Assembly: GCA_017466375.1 (NCBI GenBank)
Contig: JAFTUH010000037.1
Location: 2,782 to 66,781, forward strand
DNA length: 64,000 bases
Reading direction: 5' to 3'
Origin: Clostridia bacterium
Lineage (GTDB): Bacteria; Bacillota; Clostridia; Oscillospirales; CAG-272
The stretch's first letter is position 1. Every line of letters starts with the position of its first letter. The notes below the pieces were generated by a model, which was not told the DNA's origin, made no database searches, and saw nothing but the letters and a program-made list of their open reading frames with translations. A program made the translations under genes and the position numbers. Of the stretch, positions 16,093 to 51,238 are shown in pieces.

Positions 16093-16228
16093 GTCATCCT
16101 CTTCCTAAATGTAAATTTTACGAAAAACCAACATTCCTGACAAATGTTCAAAATTTATTTATAAATACATGCTATAATGACTATAATTGCGATCTCTTTT
16201 CTCAAAAACTCAATGCAGGAGCGTACAT

Positions 16229-17191: not shown

Positions 17192-17194
17192 TCC

Positions 17195-17899: not shown

Positions 17900-17934
17900 C
17901 GGGATGATCTCAGTGTGAAAGAAGGAGTCCCGAA

Positions 17935-27854: not shown

Positions 27855-27900
27855 TATTGCACTGAATCCTGTTTCGAAAACTGAATAAGTGATCGAACGT

Positions 27901-27965
27901 AGGGGATATGGAGAAATCCATATCCCCTATTTGTTTGGCGGCGGATGTAATCCGCCGCTTTTTTG
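27901..27965 (+). terminator. Two tandem rho-independent terminators
   Basis: AGGGGATATGGA-GAAA-TCCATATCCCCT followed by TTTGTTT. Then GGCGGCGGAT-GTAA-TCCGCCGC followed by TTTTTTG. Confidence 0.8.
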
Positions 27966-28033
27966 TCATAGAACGGTGCCCTGCGTCATATCCTTTAGTA
28001 AATTCAAATCGGACAAGAAAGGATACGAATCTT

Positions 28034-31120: not shown

Positions 31121-31149
31121 TTGACAATTTTCGGGCAATATGGTATGAT
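31121..31149 (+). promoter_or_regulatory. Strong sigma-70 type promoter, TTGACA-17-TATGAT with TGn extension
   Basis: -35 at 31121-31126, a 17-nt spacer ending in TGG, and -10 at 31144-31149. It predicts a ~270-nt leader before the ATG at 31428. Confidence 0.55.
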
Positions 31150-31335
31150 AAGTGCACATAAATATCGGTAGATTTATGCTTCTGCCGCTGTTTTATATGC
31201 AGTTTTTCTGTCGGATGCCGCCTGGCAGCCGGCTGTGAGACTGCGCGCTTTCTTCGCCTGAGACGGTATTGCTTTTCCAAATACTACATATTTATTTATA
31301 GTATTTTGTCAGTGCTGCCCGATCGGCGTACCAAA

Positions 31336-31398
31336 CCCGGAGTTACGGTTCGGCGATTCCGGGTCGGAGGTCGGTTTTCCGACCCGCTTTTATCGCCG
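31336..31398 (+). promoter_or_regulatory. Leader RNA with overlapping hairpins, including a terminator-like stem plus U-tract
   Basis: Hairpin 1 is CCCGGA...TCCGGG (31336-31363). It shares GGG with hairpin 2, GGGTCGGA-loop-TCCGACCC (31361-31385), which is followed by GCTTTTAT. CGGCGAT (31351) can also pair with ATCGCCG (31392). Confidence 0.35.
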
Positions 31399-31427
31399 AA
31401 ACCAAAATTAGCAGGAGGAAGGTTCCA

Positions 31428-34400
31428 ATGAGAAGAAACCACACCAAGCGACTGATGGCTTTTGTGCTGTCGCTGCTTATGCTGTCCGGCTGTATTGTTC
31501 CCACTTTCGCAGCCGATGATTCTTCCGACGGGAAGGGCAGTGTTGCAACGACAACTCTGAAGGAAATCAGTGCTACCTTGAACGCGATCTCGTACGATAC
31601 GTATCGCACAAGGTATCCCGATGCCAAAAAGGCAACGGAGACTGTAGAAATCGACATCGCGGACTATATCGCTGACGCTACGACGGCAGAGGTAGAGCTC
31701 CTTTCGAATGTCGCTGATGACTACGGTACCACTATGCCCAAGGCTGTTTATATCGGTGATGAGGGAAAGGTCACGTGGCCCGTGACGATTCCCGAGACCG
31801 CTCTGTACGCAGTCGAGATCACGTATACGTCCGAGTCCGATAAGACGAACTCGATCGAGCGCGTGTTCTATATTGATGACGTCGTTCCGTTCGGCGAAGC
31901 ACGTTATCTGCGCCTCACAAAGACGTGGGAGCATCAGTATGACGAGTCGACCGGTCGCTTCACGTTTGATGCAATCGGCAACGAGCTGCGTCCGAGTACC
32001 AATGTGTATAAGAGATGGACTACGCAGAAGTTCGTAGACTCCAATACATATTATGCGACTCCGTTTGAGTTCTACTTCGAGAAGGGCGAGACCACTATTG
32101 CACTCGAGGGCGTCCGTGAGGATGTTGTGATCGGTTCGATCCGCCTCGTGCCGTACGATGAGCTGCCCACCTATGAAGAGATGCTCGCTGCGTATGCACA
32201 GAAGGGATATACCGAGGGTACGGATCAGATCTATCTCGCGGCTGAGATGCCGAGCGCCGTTTCCGATTACACCATCTATCCGGTGTATGACAGAACGTCC
32301 GCGATCTCCGAGCCCCAGCATGCAACGCTTCTGTACCGCAACACGATCGGTGCGGAGAAGTGGGCGAGCATGGGTCAGTGGATCGAGTACGAGTTCGAGA
32401 TCACGAACGCCGGTCTTTATACGATCGATCTGCGCTTCAAGCAGTCCGATCTCGCCGGTCTGTATACGTCCCGTAAGCTGACGATCGACGGTGAGACGCC
32501 GTTCGCAGAGTGTAACTACCTCCGCTTCTCGTACGATACCGATTGGCAGGTCGCATCCCTGACGGACGGTATCCACGATACGCTGCAGTTCTATTTTGAA
32601 CCCGGCAAGCACACTATCCGCCTCGAGGTTACCCTCGGTGAGATGGGTGACATCGTTCGCCGCGTTTCCGAGTCTCTGGACAGCATCAATAAGTCCTACC
32701 TCGAGATTCTGAAGCTGACCGGCTCCAACCCCGACCAGTACCGTGACTACGGCTTCGCCCGCGTCATGCCCGATACGATCGAGAACATGATTCTCGAGAG
32801 CATCAACCTCAACGAGATTATTGATTACCTCGAGAGCATGAACGGCGTAAAGAGCCAGCACTCCGCAACGCTTGAGCAGATCGCGATTCTGCTTGAGAAG
32901 ATGGGTACGGACGAGGATGAAATCGCTAAGAACCTTACCAACCTCAAAAACCATATCGGTACGATGGGTACCTGGGTGTCCAACGTAACGACGCAGCCGC
33001 TCGAGATCGACTACATTCTCGTGCAGGGCGAATCCGTCGCACTTCCGAAGGCAAACGCAGGCTTCTTCCAGAGCATCTGGTATGAATTGAAGATGTTCTT
33101 CGGCAGCTTCTATGCCGATTATAACTCCCTCGGCGGAAACGGTGAGGACGGCGAGCAGGCAATTAACGCGTCCGTTACGGCATGGGTTGCTACCGGTCGT
33201 GACCAGGCGCAGATCATGCGCAGCCTCGTTGACGATAAGTTCACGCCCAATACCGGCATCGCAGTCGAGCTGAAGCTCGTAGCCGGCGGTACGCTCCTTC
33301 CGTCCATTCTGGCAGGCGTCGGTCCTGACGTTGCCCTTGACGGCTCCGGTGCGGACCCGATCCAGTACGCGATCCGCGGTGCGGCACTTGACCTCGACCA
33401 GTTCAATACGACCGGCGATCCCGAAGGACGCTTCGCGTACTCCTCGTTTGAGCAGGTCGCTTCCCGTTTCACGGAGGCGGCTCTGATTCCGCTTTCTCTC
33501 TACGGCAAGACCTACGGTCTGCCCGAGACGCAGAACTTCTGCATGATGTTCTACCGCAAGGATATCCTAGCTGACCTCGGCCTGGAGGTTCCGAAGACGT
33601 GGGATGAGCTGATGGCCATGATCCCGATTCTCCAGTTCAACAACATGGAAATCGGTCTGCCGAACAACTACCAGATCTTCATGTACCAGATGGGCGGCGA
33701 GCTTTGGGCGGACGACGGTATGAGAATCAACCTTGATTCCAATATCGCACTCGAGGCGTTTGAGGACATGTGTAATATGTTTACACAGTACTCCCTGCCG
33801 TATTCGTACTCTTTCCCGAACCGTTTCAAAACCGGTGAGATGCCGATCGGTATCATCGACTATACCACGTATAACCAGATGATCCTGTTCGCAACGGAAA
33901 TCGCAGGTCTGTGGGAAATGGTTCCGATCCCCGGTATGGTGGATGAGGACGGAAACATCAACAACGTTGCTGTTTCGACCGTTACCTCTATCGTTCTTCC
34001 GGCAGGTACCCGCGACAAGCATGCCGCATGGGCCCTGATGGATTGGTGGGTTGATACCGAATTCCAGGTTGACTACTCCAACGAGCTCGTAGCAGTCCTC
34101 GGTCCGGCAGCAAAGAACGCTACCGCAAACCGTGAGGCACTCGAGGAGCTCCCGTGGTCCTCCAGCGAGTTCTACAACATCGACCTCCAGATGAACAACC
34201 TCACCGCAATTACCGCATACCCCGGCAGCTACATTATTGCCCGTTATACGAACTTCGCATTCCTCGATGCGTATAACGACTTGGCAGACCCGGTTGATTC
34301 GCTCCTTAATTATATTAACGCGATCAATAAAGAAGTCACCCGTAAGCGTGCGGAGTTCGACTACGAAACCCTTGAAGTCGGTCAGACGCTCGCCGAGAAG

Positions 34401-34610
34401 CGCTCGAATCAGGCACTTGAACTGATGGAGACGCTCGACGGCTATGCCGACGCCAAAGCAGCAGCGCGTGCGGCGATCGAAGCCGAGGACGCAGCCGCAT
34501 TGTACGCGGCAGCCGCTGCATTCGGCAGTGCTGATGAGACGGCAGCTACGATTGCCGGCTATCTGAAGGACGCCGCAAACGCATACGAGACCTACGCACT
34601 TTACGAATAA
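31428..34610 (+). CDS. Giant extracellular solute-binding lipoprotein (1060 aa): two beta-sandwich/CBM-like modules plus a family-1 SBP domain
   Basis: Lipoprotein signal (LSLLMLSGC). Two internally similar ~150-aa modules are present (..YAVEITYTSE..RVFYIDD..ARYLRL and ..YTIDLRFKQS..LTIDGE..CNYLRF). The C-terminal ~550 aa resembles a sugar SBP. It is followed by CUT1-type permeases. Confidence 0.8.
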   Translation: MRRNHTKRLMAFVLSLLMLSGCIVPTFAADDSSDGKGSVATTTLKEISATLNAISYDTYRTRYPDAKKATETVEIDIADYIADATTAEVELLSNVADDYGTTMPKAVYIGDEGKVTWPVTIPETALYAVEITYTSESDKTNSIERVFYIDDVVPFGEARYLRLTKTWEHQYDESTGRFTFDAIGNELRPSTNVYKRWTTQKFVDSNTYYATPFEFYFEKGETTIALEGVREDVVIGSIRLVPYDELPTYEEMLAAYAQKGYTEGTDQIYLAAEMPSAVSDYTIYPVYDRTSAISEPQHATLLYRNTIGAEKWASMGQWIEYEFEITNAGLYTIDLRFKQSDLAGLYTSRKLTIDGETPFAECNYLRFSYDTDWQVASLTDGIHDTLQFYFEPGKHTIRLEVTLGEMGDIVRRVSESLDSINKSYLEILKLTGSNPDQYRDYGFARVMPDTIENMILESINLNEIIDYLESMNGVKSQHSATLEQIAILLEKMGTDEDEIAKNLTNLKNHIGTMGTWVSNVTTQPLEIDYILVQGESVALPKANAGFFQSIWYELKMFFGSFYADYNSLGGNGEDGEQAINASVTAWVATGRDQAQIMRSLVDDKFTPNTGIAVELKLVAGGTLLPSILAGVGPDVALDGSGADPIQYAIRGAALDLDQFNTTGDPEGRFAYSSFEQVASRFTEAALIPLSLYGKTYGLPETQNFCMMFYRKDILADLGLEVPKTWDELMAMIPILQFNNMEIGLPNNYQIFMYQMGGELWADDGMRINLDSNIALEAFEDMCNMFTQYSLPYSYSFPNRFKTGEMPIGIIDYTTYNQMILFATEIAGLWEMVPIPGMVDEDGNINNVAVSTVTSIVLPAGTRDKHAAWALMDWWVDTEFQVDYSNELVAVLGPAAKNATANREALEELPWSSSEFYNIDLQMNNLTAITAYPGSYIIARYTNFAFLDAYNDLADPVDSLLNYINAINKEVTRKRAEFDYETLEVGQTLAEKRSNQALELMETLDGYADAKAAARAAIEAEDAAALYAAAAAFGSADETAATIAGYLKDAANAYETYALYE

Positions 34611-34616
34611 GCGAAA

Positions 34617-34655
34617 TCAGCGGACGGCGGACACCGTTCTGCCGTCCCCCCGCTG
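34617..34655 (+). promoter_or_regulatory. Intercistronic stem-loop after the SBP gene (no U-tract)
   Basis: CAGCGGACGGCGG...CCGTCCCCCCGCTG. This is typical of mRNA-stabilising hairpins downstream of SBP genes. Confidence 0.4.
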
Positions 34656-34682
34656 AAACATTCTGATTAAGGAGAAAATGCA

Positions 34683-35627
34683 ATGTCTAAGAAATCTGAT
34701 GCACAAGTCGTTGCGCGCAAAGACATAACAAAAGCGCAGTGGACATGGATGCAGATGAAGCGCTATAAAGTTGCGTATCTGATGATCGCACCGTTTATGC
34801 TGATTTTCTTCATCTTTACGGTCATCCCCGTCATTGCGTCTCTGGCGCTCAGCTTTACGTCGTTTAACATGCTGCAGATGCCGAAGTTCCTCTTCCTCGA
34901 CAACTATATCACTCTGTTTTTGGATGATGATCTGTGGGTAACCGCACTGAAAAACACGCTCATTTTTGCCGCCGTCGTCGGACCGGTATCCTATATCCTG
35001 TCCTTCCTCGTCGCGTGGTTTATCAATGAGCTCTCTCCGAGAATCCGTGCCGTTGTTACGCTGATCTTCTACGCACCGTCCATTTCCGGTAACGCATACC
35101 TGATCTGGCAGACGCTGTTCTCCAGCGACGCACAGGGTTGGGTCAACGGTAAACTCCTTGACTGGGGCTTTATCGATACACCGGTTCTGTGGTTCCAGGA
35201 TGAACGGTACGTTATGGCACTTTGTATCATCGTTGCTCTGTGGATGTCCCTCGGTACCTCGTTCCTTTCCTTTATCGCAGGTCTTCAGGGTATCAACGTC
35301 AGCCTCTTTGAGGCAGCCGCCGTTGACGGTCTGAAGAACCGTTGGCAGGAGCTTTGGTACGTCACGCTGCCTTCCATGAAGCCGCAGCTGATGTTCGGTG
35401 CAATCATGGCGATCACCGGTGCGTTCAGCTTCGGTGCCGTCGTTACCGCACTGGCAGGTAACCCCTCCGTCAACTACGCCGCGTATACGATCCAGCATCA
35501 CCTGGATGAGTATCAGGGCGTACGCTGGGAGGTCGGTTACTCGTCCGCAATCTCGTTCGTAATGTTCCTTATGATGGTCGGCTCGAATATGGCGGTCACC
35601 AAGCTGCTTGCAAAGGTAGGTCAGTGA
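34683..35627 (+). CDS. Carbohydrate ABC transporter permease (MalF/LplB-like), pair 1
   Basis: Six TM helices and an EAA loop (AGLQGINVSLFEAAAVDGLKNRWQELWYVTLP). Confidence 0.9.
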   Translation: MSKKSDAQVVARKDITKAQWTWMQMKRYKVAYLMIAPFMLIFFIFTVIPVIASLALSFTSFNMLQMPKFLFLDNYITLFLDDDLWVTALKNTLIFAAVVGPVSYILSFLVAWFINELSPRIRAVVTLIFYAPSISGNAYLIWQTLFSSDAQGWVNGKLLDWGFIDTPVLWFQDERYVMALCIIVALWMSLGTSFLSFIAGLQGINVSLFEAAAVDGLKNRWQELWYVTLPSMKPQLMFGAIMAITGAFSFGAVVTALAGNPSVNYAAYTIQHHLDEYQGVRWEVGYSSAISFVMFLMMVGSNMAVTKLLAKVGQ

Positions 35628-35628
35628 T

Positions 35629-36504
35629 ATGGCAAAGAAATTAAGAACAAGAAAACACCGCGTCGTCCTCAACCGAAGTGTTGGCGGCGACATGGGTATC
35701 ACGGTCGTCCTTGCCATCTTCGGCGCATTCATGTTCCTCCCCATGCTGTATACCGTCATGAACGCCCTCAAGCCGATGGATGAACTTTGGATCTTCCCGC
35801 CCCGCTTCTACGTTGTCCGCCCCACGCTGGACAACTTCAAGGAGCTGTTTGCACTCATGAGTGACTCGTGGGTTCCGTTCTCCCGTTACATCTTCAATAC
35901 GGTGTTTATCTCCGTAACCGGTACGGCAGGCAACCTTCTCCTCTCCTCTATGGCAGCGTACGCGCTCGCTAAGATCCCGTTCCCGGGCTCTCAGCCGATC
36001 TTTAAGCTCGTCCGCTTTGCGCTTATGTTTACGCCTACCGTTACTGCAATCGCGAACTTCATTACGATGTCCGCACTCCGCTGGGTCGATACGTACTGGG
36101 CACTTATTATTCCTGCCTGCGCTACGTCGCTCGGTCTGTACCTCATGAAGCAGTTCATGGATTCCAACGTCTCCGCCGAGGTTCTCGAGAGTGCCCGTCT
36201 TGACGGCGCAACCGAGTTCAAGACGTTCTGGGTTATCGCCATGCCGATGGTTAAGCCCGCTTGGCTGACGCTGATTATCTACTGCTTCCAGGGTCTTTGG
36301 AATGCAGGCGCATCCATCTACATCTACAGTGAGGAGCTCAAGTCTCTGAACTACGCAATCAGCCAGATTACGGCAGGCGGTGTTGCCCGTGCAGGTGCAG
36401 CCGCAGCCGCAACGGTTATCATGATGGCAGTTCCGATTCTCGTCTTCGTTATTACGCAGAGTAATATCATCGAGACGATGGGCTCCAGCGGTATGAAGGA
36501 CTAA
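35629..36504 (+). CDS. Carbohydrate ABC transporter permease (MalG-like), pair 1
   Basis: EAA loop (ESARLDGATEFKTFWVIAMPMVKPA). It starts 1 nt after the previous stop. Confidence 0.9.
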   Translation: MAKKLRTRKHRVVLNRSVGGDMGITVVLAIFGAFMFLPMLYTVMNALKPMDELWIFPPRFYVVRPTLDNFKELFALMSDSWVPFSRYIFNTVFISVTGTAGNLLLSSMAAYALAKIPFPGSQPIFKLVRFALMFTPTVTAIANFITMSALRWVDTYWALIIPACATSLGLYLMKQFMDSNVSAEVLESARLDGATEFKTFWVIAMPMVKPAWLTLIIYCFQGLWNAGASIYIYSEELKSLNYAISQITAGGVARAGAAAAATVIMMAVPILVFVITQSNIIETMGSSGMKD

Positions 36505-36517
36505 GGAGGTATTGAAA

Positions 36518-38650
36518 ATGAAAAAGCTTTCACGCATTCTTGTGTCCGTCATTTCGCTTCTGATCCTCCTGACGACTGTCGTCGGTGCGGCTACTCCGTA
36601 TGCGACGTATACGTATTCCTCCTCGGAGTTCGTTCTGAATTCCCCCGCGGCATACGTTCCGGACAGAATCGTTGATTCCAACTATATCGGTCTGTCCACA
36701 CCCCTCGGCGACCCCCGCGATTTGTTCGTGGCACCGGATCAGACGGTGTATATCGCCGATGCAACCAATAACCGTATCGTTTGCATGGACCGCTATTTCA
36801 AACTCCAGTTTGAGATCAGCAAGTTCAACAACGAGCAGGGCGTTCCGGATACCCTTTCCGAGCCGTCCGGCGTCTTCGTAAACGATAAGTACATCTACGT
36901 CTGCGACTCGAACAATAACCGTATCATCATGTTTACGCGCGACGGTGAGTTCCACAAGGTTATCCCCGCGCCGGTCAGTGCTCTGTTTGATGAGGGTGCT
37001 ATCTATAAGCCGGTCGCCTGCGCCGTTGACGAATACGGACGGCTGTTCATCGTCTCCTCCACGACTTATCAGGGTATTATCGTCATGAGTGAGGACGGCG
37101 GTTTCCACGGCTTTATCGGTGCAACGCAGGTTCAGATCTCCGCGCTCGAGATCCTCTGGAGAAACTTCCAGACGAAGGAGCAGAGAGAGTACTCCTCCAA
37201 GTACGTCTCCACGGAGTTCAACAATATCTCCATTGATAAGGATAACTTCATCTACGTAACGACCTCCTCGATCTCCGAATCTGCGCAGCAGGCAACGATC
37301 AAGTCCAAGGACGGCACCAACGCTCCCGTTAAGAAGCTCAACGCTTCCGGCGCGGACGTTATGAGACGTAACGGCTTCTTCGCTCCGCACGGTGAGGTTA
37401 AGGTTTCGCAGTCTACGCTCGATCCGATCACCGGTCCCTCCAAGATTGTGGATGCCGCAGTCGGTCCGGAGGGAACGTGGTCCATCATCGACGAGAAGCG
37501 TTCCAAGGTCTATACGTACGATAAGGACGGCAGCCTGCTCTTCATCTTCGGTGACGGCGGCGTTCAGTTCGGTAATATCGACAGCGTAAAGGCAATCGCT
37601 TATCAGGGATCGAATATCCTGCTCCTCGATAAGGGTATGGATAAGAAGAGCATCACGGTCTACCGCCGCACGGAATACGGCGATCTCCTGCTCGGAGCTC
37701 TTGAGCATCAGAACAACCGTATCTACGACGTCGCAATCGATGACTGGACGGCCATTCTGAAGCATAACAACAACTACGATGCCGCTTATATCGGTATCGG
37801 TAAGGCACTCTACCGCGGCGGTCAGTACGAGGAAGCTATGGAGTACTACCGCTACGCATACGAGACGGAGAACTACTCCCTCGCATATCAGGAAATCCGT
37901 AAGGAATTCCTCGCGAAGTGGATCGTTCCCGTGATTCTCGGCATCGTTGCCATCTTCGTTCTAATCGGTAAATTCTTCGGATATGCCGCTAAGATCAATA
38001 AGAAGGCACAGCTGAAGGTCGGACGCAAATCCCTTAAGGAGGAGATGCTGTATCCGTTCCACCTGATCTTCCATCCGTTCGACGGATTCTGGGATTTGAA
38101 GCACGAAAAGCGCGGCTCCGTCCGCAGTGCATTCCTGATTCTCGTGATCACGATCGCATCGTTTGCTTATCAGGCAGTCGGTACCGGTTATATCTTCAAC
38201 CCGAAGGATAACGGCGGTCTCAGCATCATTATGACTGCGGTTTCTATCCTCATGCCGCTGTTCCTCTGGTGTATCGCAAACTGGTGTCTCACCACGCTGT
38301 TTGAGGGTGAAGGCAGCTTTAAGGATATCTTCGTGGCGTCCTGCTACGCTCTGACTCCTCTGCCGCTTTTGACCATTCCGGCTGTTCTCCTCTCGAACGT
38401 TCTTACGTTCAATGAGGGTCAGATTATCACGCTTCTCTCGGCAATCTCGTTTGTCTGGATGGGCGCGCTCATCTTCGTCGGTATGATGGTCACGCACGAC
38501 TACTCCATGTTCAAGAGCATCCTCACGAGCATCGGTACGATCGTCGGTGCGGTCTTCATCATGTTCCTTGCCGTCCTCTTTACGAGCCTTCTCGCAAAGA
38601 TGGTCAGCTTCGTATCCAGCATTATTGTGGAAATCAACTACCGAATGTAA
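36518..38650 (+). CDS. Signal peptide + NHL-repeat beta-propeller + TPR-like segment + C-terminal Yip1-type 5-TM domain protein
   Basis: NHL-like repeats (P.GVFVNDKYIYVCDSNNNRIIMF, VYIADATNNRIVCM). A TPR-like helix pair follows (GKALYRGGQYEEAMEYYRYAY). The C-terminal polytopic domain resembles the Yip1 family. The ATG at 36518 sits 8 nt after AAGGAGG. Confidence 0.65.
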   Translation: MKKLSRILVSVISLLILLTTVVGAATPYATYTYSSSEFVLNSPAAYVPDRIVDSNYIGLSTPLGDPRDLFVAPDQTVYIADATNNRIVCMDRYFKLQFEISKFNNEQGVPDTLSEPSGVFVNDKYIYVCDSNNNRIIMFTRDGEFHKVIPAPVSALFDEGAIYKPVACAVDEYGRLFIVSSTTYQGIIVMSEDGGFHGFIGATQVQISALEILWRNFQTKEQREYSSKYVSTEFNNISIDKDNFIYVTTSSISESAQQATIKSKDGTNAPVKKLNASGADVMRRNGFFAPHGEVKVSQSTLDPITGPSKIVDAAVGPEGTWSIIDEKRSKVYTYDKDGSLLFIFGDGGVQFGNIDSVKAIAYQGSNILLLDKGMDKKSITVYRRTEYGDLLLGALEHQNNRIYDVAIDDWTAILKHNNNYDAAYIGIGKALYRGGQYEEAMEYYRYAYETENYSLAYQEIRKEFLAKWIVPVILGIVAIFVLIGKFFGYAAKINKKAQLKVGRKSLKEEMLYPFHLIFHPFDGFWDLKHEKRGSVRSAFLILVITIASFAYQAVGTGYIFNPKDNGGLSIIMTAVSILMPLFLWCIANWCLTTLFEGEGSFKDIFVASCYALTPLPLLTIPAVLLSNVLTFNEGQIITLLSAISFVWMGALIFVGMMVTHDYSMFKSILTSIGTIVGAVFIMFLAVLFTSLLAKMVSFVSSIIVEINYRM

Positions 38651-38668
38651 ATAGGGAAAGGAGAATAT

Positions 38669-41600
38669 ATGAATATGAAAAGAATAGTATGTGCCCTTCT
38701 GTCCCTGCTTATGGCATTCGGTGTGTTTGTTCCGTCCGCAATCGAGCCTGTTTCCGCCGCTTGGGAGGATAAGGTCGATGAAGACGGCAATCCGATCATT
38801 GACTACTTCAATGCGGAGTACGATTCGCCGAAGGAAAAACTGGCGGACATGGTCCTCGTTAAGGAACAGAGCGGACATCAGATCTGGTTTGAGGAGTTCA
38901 CCGGTGAGATCGCATACGTCGATCTTGCCAGCGGACAGATTCTGTTCTCAAACCCGTGGGATGTCGCCCAGACTTATAACAAGGCATCCAAAAACACGAA
39001 GCCCGAGCTTCTGTCTCAGATTCTGATTTCTTACGTCGATAACGGTCAGACCAAGTACATGAACAGCTATAACGATGCTGCTCTGCGCGGTCAGATCCAG
39101 ATGAAGAATATCAAAAACGGTATTCGTGTAGAGTATACGATCGGTGAGGAGCAGACGATCCGTCTCGTTCCCCGTATGATCGAAAGATCCCGCTTTGAGG
39201 AGCTGATCCGCGATCAGATCACCGATGAGTGGATCCGTAATAAGGTTACCTCGTACTTCTCTGCAAAGTTCTCCTCTACTGAGAATATCAGTAAGCGTGC
39301 GCTTCTGGAGATGCAGCTGAAGTACCCGATCACCAAGGAGATCGATATCTACGTTTGTAAGCAGGATATCTCCGCGCGTGAGCTGAAGCAGCTCGAGGGC
39401 TACATCAAGACCTATTGTACCACCTACACGTACGAGGATCTCGATGCAGACCACGCGCAGTGCGGCTACGTCGGCTCCGATGCAGCTCCGCCGCTGTTCA
39501 AGATGGCAATCGAGTATACCATCACCGCTGACGGTGACCTGCAGGCAAGCCTTCCCGCAAACGGTATCCGTTTCGACGAGTCTGTTTACAAGCTCGGCGA
39601 TATCACGCTCCTGCCGTACATGGGCGCAGGTGCAAATGAGTACAACGGCTATACGTTCGTTCCGGACGGAAGCGGTGCTCTCGTCCGCTATGAGGACGTT
39701 AAGGGTCTGGTGTACAACATCTACGGCCAGCTCTACGGCGTCGACTACGCATACCACACGATCTCCAACCAGCATACGGAGGTCATGCGCTGGCCGGTAT
39801 TCGGCAACGTCACGAACATGGAATTCCCGTATACCGGTAAGGTTACGGTTGTCGTCAAAGATGAGTATATCGACGAGAACGGCAACGTGGTTCCCGCTGT
39901 GACGAAGGAAGTCACCCAGCGTATGGTCCGTGTCGAGGATATGGGCGTGTTCGGTATCATTACCCAGGGCGAATCCCTGGCAACGCTTGTCAGCGCACAC
40001 GGCGGTGCGCTCCATGCATTCAATACGGTGCATGCAAAGTTCACCCCCCGTCCGAGCGATAAGTACAACCTCTCTGAATCCATGAGCACGGCAGAGGCAA
40101 ACGCTACGTGGACCGTTGAGTCCGACCGTAAGTATACGGGACGTATCACGGTTCTCTATAAGATGCTCACCGATGCTCAGGTTGCTGAGCAGAAGAAGCT
40201 GACGGATTACTATTCCGCCGACTATATGGGCATGGTCAATGCGTACCGCGATTACCTCTACGGCAACGGCACGCTTACCACGCTTGCCGATACGACGGAC
40301 GATATTCCGCTGTATCTCGAAGTGTTCGGTTCCATGGAGACGACGGAGCGCCGCTTCTCCTTCCCGGTAACGGTAGATACGCCTCTGACGACGTTCGAGG
40401 ACATCAAGACGATGCACAAGGAACTCACCGAGTCCGGTGTCGGCAGACTGAATTTCCGTCTTATCGGATTTGCGAACGGCGGTATGAACGCTACGGTTCC
40501 GTATAAACTGAACTGGGTTGACGTTCTCGGCGGTGCCGACGGCTTTGCCGATATCGTCAAATACGCTTCTGAGAACGGCATCGGCCTCTATCCCGATTTC
40601 GATTTCGCATACGTTACGAGAACGGAACTCGGCGACGGTATGAGCCTTAGAAAGTATGCGGTTAAGACGATCGACGACCGTTATACCTCCAGAAGAACGT
40701 ACGACGCCGCTACGCAGACGTTTACGAGCAACTTCTCGCTCTGTATCTCCCCGTCCGCGTATGAGCATTTCTACAACAAGTTCACCAAGAACTATCAGAA
40801 GTACAATCCTGTGGGCATTTCCGTATCCACGCTCGGTACGGAGCTCAACTCCGACTTTGATGAGGATGAGCCGTACAACCGCGAGGACTCCAAGAACTTC
40901 ACGGTGGAGATCCTCGAGCGTATCGATAAGGAATACGCAAGCGTGATGGCGGACGGCGGTAACGCATACACTCTGCCGTACGTCGATCATATCATGAATA
41001 TGTCCATGGACAGTTCGAACTACCTCAAGGCAAGCCAGGCTATTCCGTTTATGGGAATGGTGCTGCACGGTGCCAAGTACTTCGCCGGTACGCCGATCAA
41101 TATGGAGGGCGACGTTGACTCCGCTATCCTCAAAGCGATCGAGAACGGTGCCGGACTCTACTTCACACTCTCTTATCAGAACACCAACAAGCTGAAGGAA
41201 AGCAAGGAGCTCAGCCAGTATTACTCCGTTTCTTACGAAATCTGGAAAGAGGAACTGATCGAGCACTACAACACGCTGAATGAGGCAATTGGTGATCTGC
41301 AGACCTCTCTGATTATCGATCACGAGTTCATCTACGGTGAGCGTATCCCGGATGCAGATGAGCTGGCAGCCGATGAAGAGGCGGCAAGACTCGAGGCGGA
41401 GGCTAAGGCTGAGGCTGAGGCGATCGCCAAAGAGAAGGAAGAGCGTGCGCAGAAGTATGAAGAGATGCACGCAGCTCTTGCCGACGGTGACGACACCGCA
41501 GAGGATGATAAGACACCCGCATCCAAGGATACTGCGACGGAAGATGAAACAGAAGACGCAGCTGAAGAAGAAGCAGAGGCAGAGGCACCGACTCTTCTCG

Positions 41601-41767
41601 GTGACTATGAGGCAACCAAGTATACGACGACGCTCGGTTCGATCGTTGCCGTTACGTATGATGCCGGCGTTACCTTCCTTCTCAACTATAACTCCTTTGA
41701 TGTAACGGTTCAGTACAACGGTCAGACTTATACACTTGCCGCACTCGGATTTGTGCGGATCGACTGA
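38669..41767 (+). CDS. Large secreted protein, DUF5696-like (1032 aa) with acidic C-terminal low-complexity segment
   Basis: Signal peptide (LLSLLMAFGVFVPSAIEPVSA) and an E/A/K/D-rich tract (EEAARLEAEAKAEAEAIAKEKEE..TEDETEDAAEEEAEAEA). The DUF5696 call comes from recalled co-occurrence with Yip1 and ABC genes, and has not been verified. Confidence 0.55.
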   Translation: MNMKRIVCALLSLLMAFGVFVPSAIEPVSAAWEDKVDEDGNPIIDYFNAEYDSPKEKLADMVLVKEQSGHQIWFEEFTGEIAYVDLASGQILFSNPWDVAQTYNKASKNTKPELLSQILISYVDNGQTKYMNSYNDAALRGQIQMKNIKNGIRVEYTIGEEQTIRLVPRMIERSRFEELIRDQITDEWIRNKVTSYFSAKFSSTENISKRALLEMQLKYPITKEIDIYVCKQDISARELKQLEGYIKTYCTTYTYEDLDADHAQCGYVGSDAAPPLFKMAIEYTITADGDLQASLPANGIRFDESVYKLGDITLLPYMGAGANEYNGYTFVPDGSGALVRYEDVKGLVYNIYGQLYGVDYAYHTISNQHTEVMRWPVFGNVTNMEFPYTGKVTVVVKDEYIDENGNVVPAVTKEVTQRMVRVEDMGVFGIITQGESLATLVSAHGGALHAFNTVHAKFTPRPSDKYNLSESMSTAEANATWTVESDRKYTGRITVLYKMLTDAQVAEQKKLTDYYSADYMGMVNAYRDYLYGNGTLTTLADTTDDIPLYLEVFGSMETTERRFSFPVTVDTPLTTFEDIKTMHKELTESGVGRLNFRLIGFANGGMNATVPYKLNWVDVLGGADGFADIVKYASENGIGLYPDFDFAYVTRTELGDGMSLRKYAVKTIDDRYTSRRTYDAATQTFTSNFSLCISPSAYEHFYNKFTKNYQKYNPVGISVSTLGTELNSDFDEDEPYNREDSKNFTVEILERIDKEYASVMADGGNAYTLPYVDHIMNMSMDSSNYLKASQAIPFMGMVLHGAKYFAGTPINMEGDVDSAILKAIENGAGLYFTLSYQNTNKLKESKELSQYYSVSYEIWKEELIEHYNTLNEAIGDLQTSLIIDHEFIYGERIPDADELAADEEAARLEAEAKAEAEAIAKEKEERAQKYEEMHAALADGDDTAEDDKTPASKDTATEDETEDAAEEEAEAEAPTLLGDYEATKYTTTLGSIVAVTYDAGVTFLLNYNSFDVTVQYNGQTYTLAALGFVRID

Positions 41768-41784
41768 GAAAGGGGAGTGCAGAC

Positions 41785-42765
41785 ATGAGTACAAAAGTGA
41801 AAAACAGCGATCTTCTCGGCGCATCTGCCAAGAAGAAGAAACGCAGTGCCTCCCTTGACGTGCGTAAAGCACGCGCAGGATGGTGGTTCGTCCTTCCGTT
41901 CGTGATCGGCTTTATCATTCTCTACCTGCCGATCATCTTCGACTCCATTAAGTACAGCTTCCATGAAATCCGAATCATCCGAGGCGGCGGTTACCGCCTC
42001 GAGTGGGTCGGCTGGAACAACTATTACAACGCACTCTTTAAGGATCCCGGTTTCGTACAGACGCTTGTCAGCGGTCTGAAACAGCTGGTGCTTGACGTTC
42101 CTGCTATCGTTATCTTCTCGCTGTTCGTTGCCATTCTTCTGAACGGCAAGATCGCAGGACGTGCGGCGTTCCGTGCCATCTTCTTCATTCCCGTTCTTCT
42201 GACGACCGGTCTCGCCGCTGAGATTGACCAGCAGAACATTCTGCAGCAGTATCAGTCGGCGGGCGGTATGGATGACGGTAGCGGTAACAGCTCCGTTACG
42301 GAGATCGTCTCTGTTATGGACGTACAGTCGCTGTTCTCTAACATGATGGTCGGTAAAGAGCTCGTGCAGTATGTCGTTGATCTTGTCAACAACATCTTCA
42401 ACATCATCAACCGTTCCGGTGTACAGATGCTGATCTTCCTTTCGGGACTTCAGTCTATCTCTCCGGCAATCTACGAGTCCTGCTCCATCGACGGTGCATC
42501 CGGTTGGGAGACCTTCTGGAAGATCACGCTGCCGATGGTCAGCCCGATGATCCTCGTAAACGCAATCTACACGATCATCGACTCGTTCACGTCGTCGAGC
42601 AATAAAGTCATGGAGTACATTAATAACGTATATCAGGGAGCGACCGGTGACGGTAAGGTGCTCTCCTCGGCCATGTCGTGGATGTACTTCCTCATCGTTA
42701 TCGCAGCGATCGGTCTGGTAGCCGCACTGCTCAGCGCATTCGTCTTCTACCAGAGAAGAGATTAA
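41785..42765 (+). CDS. Carbohydrate ABC transporter permease (MalF-like), pair 2
   Basis: EAA loop SGLQSISPAIYESCSIDGASGWETFWKITLP in a polytopic protein. Confidence 0.85.
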   Translation: MSTKVKNSDLLGASAKKKKRSASLDVRKARAGWWFVLPFVIGFIILYLPIIFDSIKYSFHEIRIIRGGGYRLEWVGWNNYYNALFKDPGFVQTLVSGLKQLVLDVPAIVIFSLFVAILLNGKIAGRAAFRAIFFIPVLLTTGLAAEIDQQNILQQYQSAGGMDDGSGNSSVTEIVSVMDVQSLFSNMMVGKELVQYVVDLVNNIFNIINRSGVQMLIFLSGLQSISPAIYESCSIDGASGWETFWKITLPMVSPMILVNAIYTIIDSFTSSSNKVMEYINNVYQGATGDGKVLSSAMSWMYFLIVIAAIGLVAALLSAFVFYQRRD

Positions 42766-42781
42766 GAAAGGAGGCCGCTTT

Positions 42782-43834
42782 ATGAATAACGTAGAAACTG
42801 CACCGAAAGTTAAAAAAGAAACCAAAAATAAAATCCGCGTTGAATTTGAGCGTACCCCCCTTCTTGAGAGACTGAAGGCGAAGTTTGTAAACCTCTACTT
42901 CTTCCAGAAGGTGGCGGTTTATATCTTCAAATTCCTCTTCCTTCTCGGTATCTCGTTCGTTATCCTGTTCCCGTTCTACTCGAAGATCTCCTCCTCCTTC
43001 ATGAGTCCGGAGGACTTCGTGGACGTCACGGTCGTTATGATCCCGCGTCATGCGACGCTTTCGACGTACAGAGCGATTATCGTGGACAACAACTATTGGG
43101 GCGCCTTTACCAATACGCTCCTGCTCTCCCTTGCCTGCGCTATTCTTCAGACGTTCATCTGCTGTCTGATCGCGTATGGCTTTGCGAAGTTTAAGTTCAA
43201 ATTTAATGGCTTGCTTTTCATGCTCGTCATCTTTACGATGGTCGTGCCGCACTCGACTCTGCAGCTCTCCATGTACATGAAGTTCAGATATTTCGATATA
43301 TTCGGAATCTTCAACCTACTCGGAGGCGGTGTGACAGAGGCGATCAAGGTACTGAAAGAGCCGAACCTCAATCTGCTGAATACGTTCTGGCCGCTGATCC
43401 TGCTTTCGATAACCGGTCTCGGCTTCAAGAACGGTCTGTACATCTTCATGCTCCGCCAGTACTTCAAGGGTGTGCCGGATGAGCTTGAGGAGTCCGCATA
43501 CCTCGACGGATACGGCGTATTCAAGACCTTTATGCTGATCATTCTGCCGCTGTCCGTTCCGATGCTGGTCACCGTCTTTATGTTCTCGTTCTCCTGGCAG
43601 TGGACGGATACGTTCTATACCAGAGCGTTCTTCTCCCAGAGCGGTCCGACGCTTATGCCGAGCATCGTCAAGGTGCCGCGTTCGCTGGACACCTCCTATG
43701 CAGGTGAGAACATGTACGTTGCAGCGATCCGCAATACGTGCGGTATCCTGATTCTCCTGCCGCTGGTGATTCTCTACACCTTCCTGCAGAGATACATCAT
43801 CCAGGGTATCGAGCGTTCCGGTATCACCGGTTAA
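42782..43834 (+). CDS. Carbohydrate ABC transporter permease (MalG-like), pair 2
   Basis: EAA loop (ESAYLDGYGVFKTFMLIILPLSVP), with a long N-terminal extension. Confidence 0.85.
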   Translation: MNNVETAPKVKKETKNKIRVEFERTPLLERLKAKFVNLYFFQKVAVYIFKFLFLLGISFVILFPFYSKISSSFMSPEDFVDVTVVMIPRHATLSTYRAIIVDNNYWGAFTNTLLLSLACAILQTFICCLIAYGFAKFKFKFNGLLFMLVIFTMVVPHSTLQLSMYMKFRYFDIFGIFNLLGGGVTEAIKVLKEPNLNLLNTFWPLILLSITGLGFKNGLYIFMLRQYFKGVPDELEESAYLDGYGVFKTFMLIILPLSVPMLVTVFMFSFSWQWTDTFYTRAFFSQSGPTLMPSIVKVPRSLDTSYAGENMYVAAIRNTCGILILLPLVILYTFLQRYIIQGIERSGITG

Positions 43835-43841
43835 TTCCAAT

Positions 43842-43874
43842 AAAAAAGCACCGTTTTATGCGGTGCTTTTTTTG
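43842..43874 (+). terminator. Rho-independent terminator ending the 12.4 kb operon
   Basis: AAAAAGCACCG-TTTTAT-GCGGTGCTTTTTTT. Confidence 0.8.
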
Positions 43875-43965
43875 ATGCATTTTCTGTGTATCTGTGATAT
43901 AATTATAACGGATGCGAAAAAAACACGCATCTGATTCGTCATAGTAGGTGAAAGGGGGTGGAGAG

Positions 43966-44469
43966 ATGGACGTTACGGAACTGAATGTGTGTATGGAACG
44001 GTTGCGTGCAGGTGATAGGGAAGCGTTTTCCTGCCTGTATGACGAGTTGAGCCGTCCCGTCTATACGGTTGCACGGCGTATTGTGCAGTCGCGTGAGATC
44101 GCGGAGGATATCACGCAGGAGGTGTTTGTCAGGCTGTACGTCTCACCGCCTCCGCCTTCGATCGAGAATCCGCGTGCGTGGATCTTTCGGATGGCGCGCA
44201 ATCTGGCGATCGACGCATGGCGGAAAAAACAAAGCACGGATATCGACGACGTGCAGTTGGCAGAGGCGGACGTCGCGGATGCTGTCGCTCTTCGGCTCGA
44301 TACGGAGGCGGCAATCGGGCATTTGCCGGCGATGGAAAGACAGATTCTGTCGCTGCATCTCGACGGCGATATGCCGTTTCGCGAGATTGCTCCCATCGTG
44401 GGACTGTCCCTGCCCGCTGTGTACCGACGGTACCGCAAAGCGATCAAAACTCTACAGAATTTGCTATAA
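43966..44469 (+). CDS. ECF-type RNA polymerase sigma factor (#2)
   Basis: Region 2 (EIAEDITQEVFVRLY, RNLAIDAWRK) and region 4 (MPFREIAPIVGLSLPAVYRRYRKAIKTL). The ATG lies behind AGGGGGTGGAG. Confidence 0.8.
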   Translation: MDVTELNVCMERLRAGDREAFSCLYDELSRPVYTVARRIVQSREIAEDITQEVFVRLYVSPPPPSIENPRAWIFRMARNLAIDAWRKKQSTDIDDVQLAEADVADAVALRLDTEAAIGHLPAMERQILSLHLDGDMPFREIAPIVGLSLPAVYRRYRKAIKTLQNLL

Positions 44470-44480
44470 CGGAGGAGCGT

Positions 44481-45254
44481 ATGAGAAAACGGATTATGGC
44501 TGTACTGCTGCTCGTGTGTTTCTGCATACCGTCGGTTTTTGCGACGGATGCAGTGTTCGACGGCGCATGGGATTTGTATCAGTATTGGGAGGAAAACGAC
44601 GCGTATCCCGACTACGTCAGCGGTGTCTGGTCGACGGACGGCGGAGTACGGAATCTGACGATCGGTGTGCTGGATACCGCGGAGGGAAACGCAGGCAAGG
44701 AAGAGATCCTCTCGCTTGTCAGGGATGATACTACCGTGGCGTTTGCGTACGGAAAGAAAAGTTATAATGAACTTACGGACGTGATGGATGCACTTATGCC
44801 GTATTTCGAGCGGGATCAGGGGCTCATTTCCGCAGGCGTAAACGTGATGGCGGGGGCGATCAACCTCGGTATCCATGAGGATCGGCAGGACGATCCCGCG
44901 ACGATTGCCATGATTGAGGAGATGCGGCAGACGTTCGGTGACGTGTTCGTCATCGAATACACGGGGCTTGTTTTTACCTATGCAGATACAGCAACGGTAG
45001 GCGGGACGGTTACGTATACCGATCCGCACGTGTTATTTGCAATCGCCGCGTCGGTGGTGATCCTTGCGGCTTTGACAACGGCGATCGTTCTGAAAAAGCG
45101 GCAGGTATCCGTTTTGCAGACGAGCACGGGTGAGACGGTCACTGCGGATGCACGCCTTACCAAAAGCGAGGTGGAGGAAGCCGTGAAAACTTCCGCAGAG
45201 GCACCGTCGGATGCGCTCAAACAGCGGATCTTTGACGAAATCGGAAAAGACTAA
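44481..45254 (+). CDS. Membrane protein co-transcribed with ECF sigma #2: signal peptide, ~190-aa external domain, one TM helix, ~55-aa cytoplasmic tail
   Basis: GGAGGAGCGT precedes the ATG at 44481. The track ORF from 44178 overlaps the sigma gene in another frame and was trimmed. TM helix is VLFAIAASVVILAALTTAIVL. Confidence 0.55.
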   Translation: MRKRIMAVLLLVCFCIPSVFATDAVFDGAWDLYQYWEENDAYPDYVSGVWSTDGGVRNLTIGVLDTAEGNAGKEEILSLVRDDTTVAFAYGKKSYNELTDVMDALMPYFERDQGLISAGVNVMAGAINLGIHEDRQDDPATIAMIEEMRQTFGDVFVIEYTGLVFTYADTATVGGTVTYTDPHVLFAIAASVVILAALTTAIVLKKRQVSVLQTSTGETVTADARLTKSEVEEAVKTSAEAPSDALKQRIFDEIGKD

Positions 45255-45258
45255 CGAA

Positions 45259-45290
45259 AAGGGAGAGCACGTCTCTCCCTTTTTATTTTG
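45259..45290. terminator. Bidirectional terminator
   Basis: AAAAGGGAGAG-CACGT-CTCTCCCTTTTTATTTT. Confidence 0.7.
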
Positions 45291-45344
45291 TCGGTACTGC
45301 TGTACAGGTGTGCCCGATCCACGGATCTTCGCCGTCCAAGCGGA

Positions 45345-46202
45345 TTACCGTTTTACGTTCCGGTACTCTCGCGGAGAGACACCCATGTGTTTTTTGAAAA
45401 TGCGCGAGAAATACTGCGGGGAGTCAAACTGCAGCCGTGCGGAGATTTCCGCGATGCTTCCCTCGCCGCACAGGATCGCCTGCCCGGCTGCCTCGATCCG
45501 TTTCACAAGATACCAGTGCATCACGCTGTCACCGTAGGCACGGCGGAACACCTCGCTCAATCGGCTCTTTCCGTAGTGGAATTTCTCACACAACAGCTTC
45601 ATATCCACCGCATCGTACAGGTGCTCCTCCAGATACGAGCGAACCTCAGCGGCGAGTTTGGAGTCCAGCTCCTCACGCGTCGTGTACAGCACGGTCTGGG
45701 ATTCTTTTTCCTGCTGACGGAGGATACCGATCAGCAGCTGCTCCAGATACAGCCCGAGCATCTGCTGCGCGCCCAGCGGTGCATCCTTCAGCGTGGTCAG
45801 CGGCATAAATATGTTTGCATAGCTCACGTTTCGTTCCTCAATGAGTTCTTCCATCAGCTTCCGCAGCTTCTCCGACAGATGAAGCATTTTCCCTTTAAGG
45901 GCGGTCATGGCAGGAGAGTTGCAATCAAAGGTGATGATGAAAGCGGAAAACGGATGCTCCCCGTCTCCTCCGAGCCCGTGCGGTACGTTCGGCGCATGGA
46001 AAACCACGTCTCCGGGCTGCATGAGACCTTGCCGGTCTTCCTCGTAAAACATCATATTGCCGCTTCGAACGTACACCATTTCCCAAAAATCGTGAGTTTC
46101 CAGTGACGGCGTAATGAAATCGCCGTTCGCTTCTCGGGTAAAACAGGTGATCAGATGTCTGACACGCAGAAGATCCTCCAGACGGACGAATATGTATTCC
46201 AT
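45345..46202 (-). CDS. AraC family transcriptional regulator (cupin + HTH)
   Basis: C-terminal AraC HTH (SIAEISARLQFDSPQYFSRIFKKHMGVSPREYR) and an N-terminal cupin-like sensor domain. Confidence 0.85.
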   Translation of the reverse strand: MEYIFVRLEDLLRVRHLITCFTREANGDFITPSLETHDFWEMVYVRSGNMMFYEEDRQGLMQPGDVVFHAPNVPHGLGGDGEHPFSAFIITFDCNSPAMTALKGKMLHLSEKLRKLMEELIEERNVSYANIFMPLTTLKDAPLGAQQMLGLYLEQLLIGILRQQEKESQTVLYTTREELDSKLAAEVRSYLEEHLYDAVDMKLLCEKFHYGKSRLSEVFRRAYGDSVMHWYLVKRIEAAGQAILCGEGSIAEISARLQFDSPQYFSRIFKKHMGVSPREYRNVKR

Positions 46203-51200: not shown

Positions 51201-51238
51201 AAATCCCCGATAGATTTTTCGTCTATCGGGGATTTTTT
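51201..51238. terminator. Bidirectional terminator
   Basis: AAATCCCCGATAGA-TTTTTC-GTCTATCGGGGATTTTTT. Confidence 0.8.

Follow-up and report, generated by a model that had tools for sequence, protein, structure and literature searches.

A seven-gene cassette in the genome of a Clostridia bacterium (Oscillospirales, CAG-272; assembly GCA_017466375.1, contig JAFTUH010000037.1) is best read as a coordinated system for capturing a glycan at the cell surface, cleaving it and importing the products, i.e., as a double CUT1 ATP-binding cassette (ABC) importer coupled to a glycosidase; the probability of this reading is put at about 0.55. The window analyzed is a stretch of 64,000 nt, and the cassette lies at positions 31428–43834 of its forward strand. 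The genes encode, in order, a large solute-binding lipoprotein (SBP), two permeases (P1 and P2), a membrane protein with NHL, TPR and Yip1 domains (YIP), a DUF5696 protein and a second pair of permeases (P3 and P4).

An open reading frame (ORF) scan recovered the seven genes at the positions given in a preliminary description of this DNA, which had claimed that they are tightly spaced and run from one promoter to one terminator; the genes, the promoter and the terminal hairpin were all seen (Table 1). The intergenic gaps are, in order, 72, 1, 7, 18, 17 and 16 nt, and a GGAGG-like ribosome-binding site precedes every gene. Pfam detects BPD_transp_1 in P1–P4, Yip1, NHL and TPR domains in the fourth protein and DUF5696 in the fifth. 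No regulator or annotated carbohydrate-active enzyme (CAZyme) was detected inside the cassette with Pfam and NCBIfam. The preliminary description had stated that the operon has no ATPase, regulator or classical glycoside hydrolase (GH); this stands for the ATPase and the regulator, whereas the absence of a glycosidase holds by sequence only, the predicted fold of the DUF5696 protein being GH-like. The genes already carry generic annotations in RefSeq (DUF5696, YIP1 family, NHL repeat) and their sequences are not new; what is newly recognized is the seven-gene module and the glycosidase-like fold of DUF5696. No description of the cassette was found in the full-text literature on DUF5696, PF18952 or Yip1 combined with SBP, GH or ABC.

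Table 1. Coordinates of the cassette genes, its expression signals and the divergent upstream gene (positions in the 64,000-nt window).
Feature	Position	Strand	Evidence or score
ROK-family glucokinase-like gene, divergent, 321 aa	29613–30578	-	Pfam ROK 1.5e-59
Sigma-70-type promoter, TTGACA-17 nt-TGgTATGAT (extended -10)	31121–31149	+	Score 11/12 plus TG
Structured 5' leader, ~280 nt	31150–31427	+	Two hairpins called terminator-like
Large lipoprotein SBP, 1060 aa	31428–34610	+	AF2, Foldseek, PDB sequence match
Permease P1, MalF/UgpA-type, 314 aa	34683–35627	+	Pfam BPD_transp_1, NCBIfam UgpA-like
Permease P2, MalG/UgpE-type, 291 aa	35629–36504	+	Pfam, NCBIfam, hydropathy
NHL-TPR-Yip1 membrane protein (YIP), 710 aa from ATG	36518–38650	+	Pfam, PDB phmmer, hydropathy
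DUF5696 protein, 1032 aa	38669–41767	+	Pfam PF18952, AF2, Foldseek
Permease P3, MalF-type, 326 aa	41785–42765	+	Pfam, NCBIfam, hydropathy
Permease P4, MalG-type, 350 aa	42782–43834	+	Pfam, NCBIfam, hydropathy
Intrinsic terminator, AAAAAAGCACCG-loop-CGGTGCTTTTTTT	43842–43872	+	13-bp stem plus U-run

The order of the genes is strongly conserved. When 185,579 species genomes were scanned with a DUF5696 alignment, 386 encoding loci emerged, and the best 80 of these, all from uncultured gut or rumen Clostridia, were examined. With the seven window proteins as tblastn queries, the order SBP-P1-P2-YIP-DUF5696-P3-P4 was found in 69 of 69 sufficiently long loci; the remaining 16 gut-Clostridia loci are cut by contig ends, yet consistent with it. 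Searches of PLSDB (tblastn) revealed DUF5696 homologs (24–25% identity) in Butyrivibrio fibrisolvens D1 and Paenibacillus cellulosilyticus, each carried by a replicon for which the RefSeq annotation displays the identical seven-part order, and Pfam and reciprocal BLAST point to one-to-one orthology of all seven parts, the full-length giant SBP included, at 24–58% identity. A metagenome scan seeded with the Paenibacillus DUF5696 sequence provided 80 diverse loci (25–43% identity). The complete canonical order is present in 42 of them, 32 are cut by contig ends but consistent with it, two have the circularly permuted order YIP-DUF5696-P3-P4-SBP-P1-P2 (L151 and L160), and four contain a half-module, YIP-DUF5696-P3-P4 followed by a ~460-aa SBP_bac_1 protein (L111, L132, L154 and L157), with no giant SBP-P1-P2 in view. 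A second YIP gene lies 2.5 kb past P4 at L132. Because YIP, DUF5696, P3 and P4 are never separated, even in the permuted and half-module loci, they form the invariant core of the cassette, of which the giant SBP-P1-P2 is a nearly constant companion. The gene order set out in the preliminary description is, thus, conserved across classes of Firmicutes, its non-conservation being ruled out, and the persistence of a fixed seven-gene order at 24–58% identity implies that the products are mutually dependent parts of one machine.

The DUF5696 protein matches PF18952 with 462.8 bits (cut-off 25.6; E 2.5e-138). It starts with a signal peptide or anchor. In an AlphaFold2 (AF2) model made from a 56-sequence alignment (pLDDT 75, pTM 0.73), a beta-sandwich forms the N-terminal part, residues ~548–880 fold into a (beta/alpha)8 barrel, and a beta domain makes up the C-terminal part; there is a long beta-hairpin insertion at residues 377–433. 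Foldseek aligned this model with the Zobellia GH129 3,6-anhydro-D-galactosidase (5opq and 8rzk; E 1e-24, TM-score 0.68 on the target), the GH129 alpha-N-acetylgalactosaminidase NagBb of B. bifidum (5wzn; E 1e-19), GH31 enzymes (YihQ and others; E 1e-12), GH101 (5a58 and 2zxq; E 1e-12 to 1e-10) and GH36 (8x1b and 3mi6; E 1e-10 to 1e-9). An amylase-like barrel is common to GH101 and GH129 (PMC8106489). The “missing” glycosidase of the cassette is probably DUF5696, because the model resembles the retaining alpha-glycosidases of GH129, GH101, GH31 and GH36, and the earlier suggestion that this protein is an unrecognized glycan-active enzyme gains support from the predicted fold. The model suggests that DUF5696 may be a retaining glycosidase. 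It falls outside GH129 by the CAZy sequence criterion, and would form a new family. The DUF5696 profile gave one marginal match in the PDB, to NagBb over the beta2-alpha2 region (E 0.044); phmmer returned nothing from the PDB, NCBIfam provided no enzyme link, no Pfam GH family was matched even at E values of up to 10, and an hhalign comparison of this profile with YihQ of E. coli (GH31) gave a probability of 0.2%. Neither YIP nor DUF5696 matched a characterized family by sequence in the Pfam, NCBIfam and PDB searches, in keeping with the initial view of them as proteins without a defined function.

The “long acidic tail” originally attributed to the 1032-aa protein proved to be an insertion, consisting of a helix and an acidic disordered stretch (residues 896–978, window positions 41354–41602), that interrupts the C-terminal beta domain, the conserved remainder of which follows. 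This stalk, a helical insertion rich in Ala, Glu and Lys, varies in length: it is ~80 aa long in the window protein, 200–500 aa in several lineages and ~900 aa at L070 (10001–15575) and L073 (2641–8169), where the proteins measure ~1,850 aa, the longest stalk being seen in relatives of 1,857 aa. L078 and L081 are further loci with such a stalk, and representatives of DUF5696 in the library reach 2,545 aa. The Butyrivibrio and Paenibacillus proteins have no stalk and match the Pfam model from end to end. The stalk may be an arm spanning the wall or the S-layer. Its length is correlated with that of the SBP (r = 0.60); a spacer shared by the two proteins was considered and rejected, as the added SBP length is found in the loops of the N-terminal modules and in the C-terminal tail, with no matching stalk.

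YIP is invariably encoded immediately upstream of DUF5696 and is the best conserved part of the cassette other than the permeases (81% mean column identity over 28 homologs that are 63–88% identical). Its ORF (36512–38650) corresponds to 712 aa from an in-frame TTG at 36512 and to 710 aa from the ATG at 36518, which is probably the start codon, as in homologs; the domains and topology proposed earlier were recovered. Pfam Yip1 scores 59.6 bits (cut-off 28.6) over profile positions 2–171 of 173, NHL scores 33.1 bits (cut-off 20), and TPR_16 is also detected. The NHL repeats match propellers in the PDB (phmmer), including those of Thin (4e-14), TRIM71 and the PknD sensor. The hydropathy profile predicts an N-terminal signal peptide or anchor, an ectodomain of ~440 aa, a transmembrane helix (471–489), a cytoplasmic loop and a Yip1 domain with five hydrophobic segments (535–695). 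Invariant motifs include HPFDGFWDLKHExRGS (519–534), NWCLTTL..GEGS (588–600) and THDY (659–662). In Butyrivibrio (pNP243; L089 9873–11968), one gene encodes the NHL part (498 aa, with its own C-terminal transmembrane helix) and another, overlapping it by 22 nt, encodes the Yip1 part (206 aa). Several metagenomic loci are split likewise, so that the ectodomain and the membrane domain look separable. Yip1 proteins had been described as known chiefly from eukaryotic vesicle traffic, but they are not exotic in bacteria: in Bacillus, the Yip1 protein YknW is an accessory subunit of the ABC transporter YknWXYZ and is reported to modulate how this complex assembles (PMC4887032, citing Yamada et al. 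2012). By analogy, YIP may be a membrane scaffold or an assembly factor.

The SBP has an LSGC lipobox (Cys22). In its AF2 model (pLDDT 80), a disordered tether is followed by two beta-rich modules (73–241 and 268–402), four long helices (406–521), a CUT1 SBP fold (526–980) and a helical tail (988–1059). The two modules are weakly akin (E 2e-4, 23% identity), and the model and the self-comparison agree with the initial account of a 1060-aa protein with two internally related beta modules ahead of the SBP fold. These modules reach only sub-threshold scores with Golvesin_C (21–24 bits, cut-off 31.6) and GH115_C (19–22 bits, cut-off 24.1); precomputed matches to CBM_35 or CBM_6 exist for several orthologs, in which Pfam SBP_bac_1 and SBP_bac_8 are also found. 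The label “giant SBP bearing carbohydrate-binding modules (CBMs)” is thus a fair one, with glycan binding putative. Foldseek matches of the full model are dominated by the SBP domain (E 1e-14 with oligosaccharide SBPs, TM-score 0.75–0.80 on the target), the C-terminal half matching binders of sophoro-oligosaccharides, cycloisomalto-oligosaccharides and cellodextrins, and MalE; phmmer against the PDB found Lin1841 (3e-8).

All four permeases carry BPD_transp_1 and an intact EAA loop (EAAAVDG in P1, ESARLDG in P2, ESCSIDG in P3 and ESAYLDG in P4), and the earlier reading of two complete MalF/MalG-type pairs is correct. Both pairs should dock an ATPase, because the four loops are intact. P3 has an extracytoplasmic insert of ~100 aa (residues 146–245). 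P1 is 26% identical to P3, and P2 is 25% identical to P4, and each of the four has its own orthologs in Butyrivibrio and Paenibacillus (52% and 42% identity, respectively, for P1, 58% and 39% for P2, 40% and 33% for P3, and 43% and 28% for P4), indicating that the duplication is ancient and that both pairs have been maintained. No MalK/MsmX-type ATPase is encoded in the window or less than 10 kb from the cassette in 81 loci of the window's clade; the only ABC ATPase of the window (16187–17191) belongs to an ABC-2/GldG-like cluster. The Paenibacillus operon opens with a MalK-type ATPase gene (ABC_tran, OB_MalK and TOBE_2), and such a gene lies upstream or downstream of the cassette in 11 metagenomic loci, never more than once. 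This pattern fits a single MsmX-type ATPase shared by the two translocators and encoded in trans here, and relatives with exactly one MalK-type gene at the cassette edge lend weight to the shared ATPase that had been proposed.

The same loci could be those of two independent CUT1 importers that travel together, the large SBP serving P1-P2 alone, P3-P4 using a small SBP from elsewhere, and YIP and DUF5696 being uncoupled accessories. Besides the half-module loci, the exchanged order of the halves at L151 and L160 and the identity of just ~25% between the permease pairs, this unlikely explanation draws on a sublineage in which homologous small conventional SBPs adjoin P3-P4 or the cassette (three examples are 26–33% mutually identical), and on Butyrivibrio, with two extra SBPs after P4 (L089 16618–20048). 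The two halves are nevertheless adjacent and co-oriented in at least 111 complete loci, no small conventional SBP is encoded in the window or the 10-kb flanks of the gut clade, and the linked ATPase, where present, is single for both permease pairs. The earlier statement that there is only one SBP consequently applies to the window's clade and fails for the sublineage with a small SBP beside P3-P4.

The cassette appears to be expressed from the near-consensus promoter that had been placed at 31121; the -35 and extended -10 boxes are kept in six related leaders. The entire leader folds with z = -5.0. It begins with a hairpin and U-tract (31166–31196), the stem of which has compensatory changes in relatives, and contains a strong hairpin (~31349–31404) ending ~20 nt upstream of the SBP ribosome-binding site, which itself lies in a nearly invariant region (AGCAGGAGGAAGGTTCTATGAGA). 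One terminator-like hairpin within the leader had gone unmentioned in the preliminary description. In 60 orthologous leaders, the 73 nt preceding the ribosome-binding site are more structured than shuffled sequences (mean z -2.0, from per-sequence folding); the stems diverge in sequence while remaining complementary, and the apical loops are frequently TCGGTCA(A/G) or CTTTCGTGAGC. A consensus structure was abandoned: alignments made with MAFFT did not agree with the structure, and a 4-bp hairpin was all that RNAalifold recovered. Rfam contained nothing credible, for the whole window at the gathering threshold or for the leader in E-value mode. Attenuation, riboswitch-like behavior and mRNA stabilization are all conceivable roles for the leader, which may be the control route of a cassette that has no regulator or may simply stabilize the mRNA. 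The terminator reported at 43842, overlooked by a consensus scanner, was confirmed by folding: it lies 8 bases past the last stop codon and has a free energy of -17.7 kcal/mol (z -4.5), with none of 200 shuffles as stable.

The flanks of the cassette in the gut clade consist of unrelated housekeeping genes that vary between loci (ROK, nifS/nifU, alaS, recA, POR and SipL). The ROK gene is the only recurrent neighbor; it precedes the cassette in 23 related loci and is not obligatory. Clustering of flank ORFs and tblastn searches with the window flanks and with GH43-like, GH51 and GH95 neighbors identified no conserved partner; counts from this clustering are lower bounds, the greedy ORF caller having missed genes on GC-rich DNA, and neighbors and ATPases were also checked by tblastn and six-frame motif scans. 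Such flanks may also be what would be expected if the cassette recycled an endogenous envelope glycan (for instance a polysaccharide of the wall or the S-layer, or an exopolysaccharide) and did not serve to forage for dietary or host glycans. The lack of a linked regulator, a promoter that looks strong and constitutive, the invariant composition of the cassette in the 80 gut-Clostridia loci examined, and the SLH protein and UDP-GlcNAc 2-epimerase encoded nearby in the window would all suit this idea, which is quite improbable given that CBM-like SBP modules are typical of polysaccharide foraging, that in Butyrivibrio a two-component system and a GH43 gene lie upstream of the cassette, and that GH43-like, GH51 or GH95 genes are neighbors at some loci.

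The conservation of residues in DUF5696 bears on whether its barrel is catalytic. Many polar residues in the loops following the barrel strands are invariant across the gut clade, and D729, R738, N765, H800, N811, an acid at position 815, E825 and the PDGxG motif of the N-domain are retained down to 24% identity. D729 and the acid at 815 fall in loops after predicted barrel strands and are the likely nucleophile and the likely acid/base, respectively. It is very improbable that DUF5696 is instead a non-catalytic pseudo-glycosidase forming, with the NHL propeller, a membrane-tethered substrate receptor that replaces the SBP of P3-P4: YIP-DUF5696 does occupy the place of the SBP gene in a standard SBP-P-P operon, the protein has no sequence link to active GH families, and many carboxylates invariant in the gut clade (D645, D669, D679 and E813) are lost in the 24%-identical homologs, but a core of barrel residues of the kind seen in active sites (D729, N765, H800, N811, the acid at 815 and E825) is invariant in all lineages, and DUF5696 persists where a small SBP adjoins P3-P4.

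Several points weigh against a glycosidase-coupled double importer. Sequence methods tie DUF5696 to no GH family, and the catalytic residues named above are guesses. Synteny is what suggests a contact between YIP, DUF5696 and P3-P4. The two translocators may be functionally separate, since some lineages pair P3-P4 with a small SBP, and in this genome the partner of P3-P4 may be an orphan SBP whose gene lies elsewhere. No substrate can be named, because the cassette has no constant link to any CAZyme, regulator or catabolic gene, and housekeeping-type flanks are unusual for a dietary-glycan locus.

The glycosidase-coupled double importer would nevertheless account for the gene set, the predicted folds and topologies, and the invariant linkage that were observed. 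The lipid-anchored SBP, with its CBM-like modules, would capture a glycan or oligosaccharide, which the membrane-proximal DUF5696 protein would hydrolyze at the surface. The large SBP would feed oligosaccharides to P1-P2 and, in the window's clade, possibly also to P3-P4; YIP, on the model of YknW, would scaffold DUF5696 beside P3-P4, and a single MalK/MsmX-type ATPase encoded elsewhere in the genome would energize both CUT1 translocators. With no linked regulator, the level of expression would depend on the strong promoter together with the structured leader. Catalysis, the physical contacts and the SBP partner of P3-P4 are the inferred parts of this scheme. A more specific version can be put forward tentatively: the cassette may represent a Firmicutes-wide class of importers in which the NHL-Yip1 protein docks a new GH family, DUF5696, on a dedicated ABC translocator, channeling the products into it. 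If so, polymers or oligomers would be dealt with by the giant CBM-bearing SBP and the second translocator. Monoderms would then have their own counterpart of “selfish” Sus-like uptake, and no importer was previously known to require a Yip1 subunit.

Several other genes of the window were noted. The start of the ROK gene was placed at the ATG at 30578, because the mechanical ORF start (30665) lies upstream of its promoter (30641–30613, reverse strand), a perfect 12/12 match (TTGACA-17-TATAAT); with the NCBIfam ROK glucokinase model, the protein scores 233 bits, below the cut-off of 260. Upstream of the cassette (24735–29569, forward strand) are genes for a 1039-aa SLH-domain protein and a 553-aa SipL/SPOCS-domain protein, which indicate an S-layer-bearing, spore-forming clostridial host; a SipL-like gene adjoins ROK in ~14 related loci, and a UDP-GlcNAc 2-epimerase gene is also located near the cassette. 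The ABC-2-type cluster at 16187–20936 (forward strand), in which the ATPase gene is followed by genes for ABC_transp_aux/DUF7088 and DUF4340 (GldG-like) proteins, appears to be unrelated to the cassette. Directly past the terminator, a 173-aa ORF (43948–44469, forward strand) has an N-terminus (MDVTELNVCMERLRAGDREAFSCLYDEL...) that, by eye, resembles ECF-type sigma factors in their region 2. The ORFs at 44178–45254 and 45288–46106 have no Pfam or NCBIfam match, and those at 48373–50529 (718 aa), 55863–60560 (~1,470–1,550 aa, either strand), 60103–62502 (613–667 aa) and 62565–63935 (456 aa) have no Pfam match at E <= 1e-5; a GH20-like gene lies at 51238–53073 (reverse strand), and the right-hand third of the window is mostly unannotatable with the libraries used.

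DUF5696 is a large family without an assigned function (4,285 clusters at 50% identity in a representative library, 1,701 of them at E <= 1e-30), tied to a Yip1/NHL protein and a permease pair in every sufficiently long locus examined (from uncultured gut and rumen Clostridia, Butyrivibrio and Paenibacillus) and accompanied by the second permease pair and the giant SBP at almost all of them. Should DUF5696 prove to be a glycosidase, it would found a new GH family, and a system abundant in uncultured Clostridia of the gut and rumen would gain a role in substrate processing. Should the Yip1 protein be a structural subunit, type I ABC importers would have a new kind of accessory component and the Yip1 fold a function in bacteria. 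The cassette is directly testable, as two strains that carry it, B. fibrisolvens D1 and P. cellulosilyticus KACC 14175, are in culture.

Among known systems, the Firmicute CUT1 oligosaccharide importers (TC 3.A.1.1) that draw on a shared MsmX/MsmK-type ATPase, such as AraNPQ, GanSPQ and MdxEFG of B. subtilis and the MsmK-dependent systems of S. pneumoniae, share with the cassette an SBP_bac_1-fold lipoprotein, MalF/MalG permeases with EAA loops and the absence of the ATPase from the operon, and the ATPase of the relatives is of the MalK type, with OB_MalK and TOBE domains. Unlike these importers, the cassette holds two ancient, non-interchangeable permease pairs in one operon, an SBP of twice the normal size with two CBM-like modules and a helical region, an obligatory Yip1 protein and DUF5696 exoprotein, and no regulator. 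DUF5696 resembles GH129 (NagBb, 5WZN; Zobellia, 5OPQ/8RZK), GH101, GH31 and GH36 in its predicted succession of beta-sandwich, (beta/alpha)8 barrel and C-terminal beta domain; it differs from them in having ~10% identity, with no significant sequence or Pfam relationship, in carrying the hairpin insertion and the stalk within the C-terminal domain, and in being encoded always within an ABC-transporter operon. YknW, like YIP, is a polytopic Yip1-family membrane protein encoded with a Firmicute ABC transporter, but YknWXYZ belongs to the MacB-type exporters and includes a membrane-fusion protein, and YknW has no NHL or TPR ectodomain, whereas the presumed partners of YIP are a type I importer and a glycosidase-like protein. 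The cassette can also be compared with Gram-positive polysaccharide utilization loci (gpPULs) and, as a functional analogy, with the Sus-like systems of Bacteroidetes: it shares with them the co-localization, at the cell surface, of a transporter with binding modules and a glycosidase-like protein, which suggests coupled capture, cleavage and uptake. The cassette has no regulator or annotated CAZyme, and is invariant in composition where gpPULs are mosaic; it has no TonB-dependent or SusD-type component of the kind found in Sus-like systems. Overall, it would work in the manner of CUT1 importers of Firmicutes that have an extracellular glycosidase of their own, and is set apart by four features: an obligatory double translocator, a Yip1/NHL subunit, a candidate glycosidase recognizable by fold only, without a sequence match to any CAZy family, and a fixed gene order in Clostridia and Bacilli.

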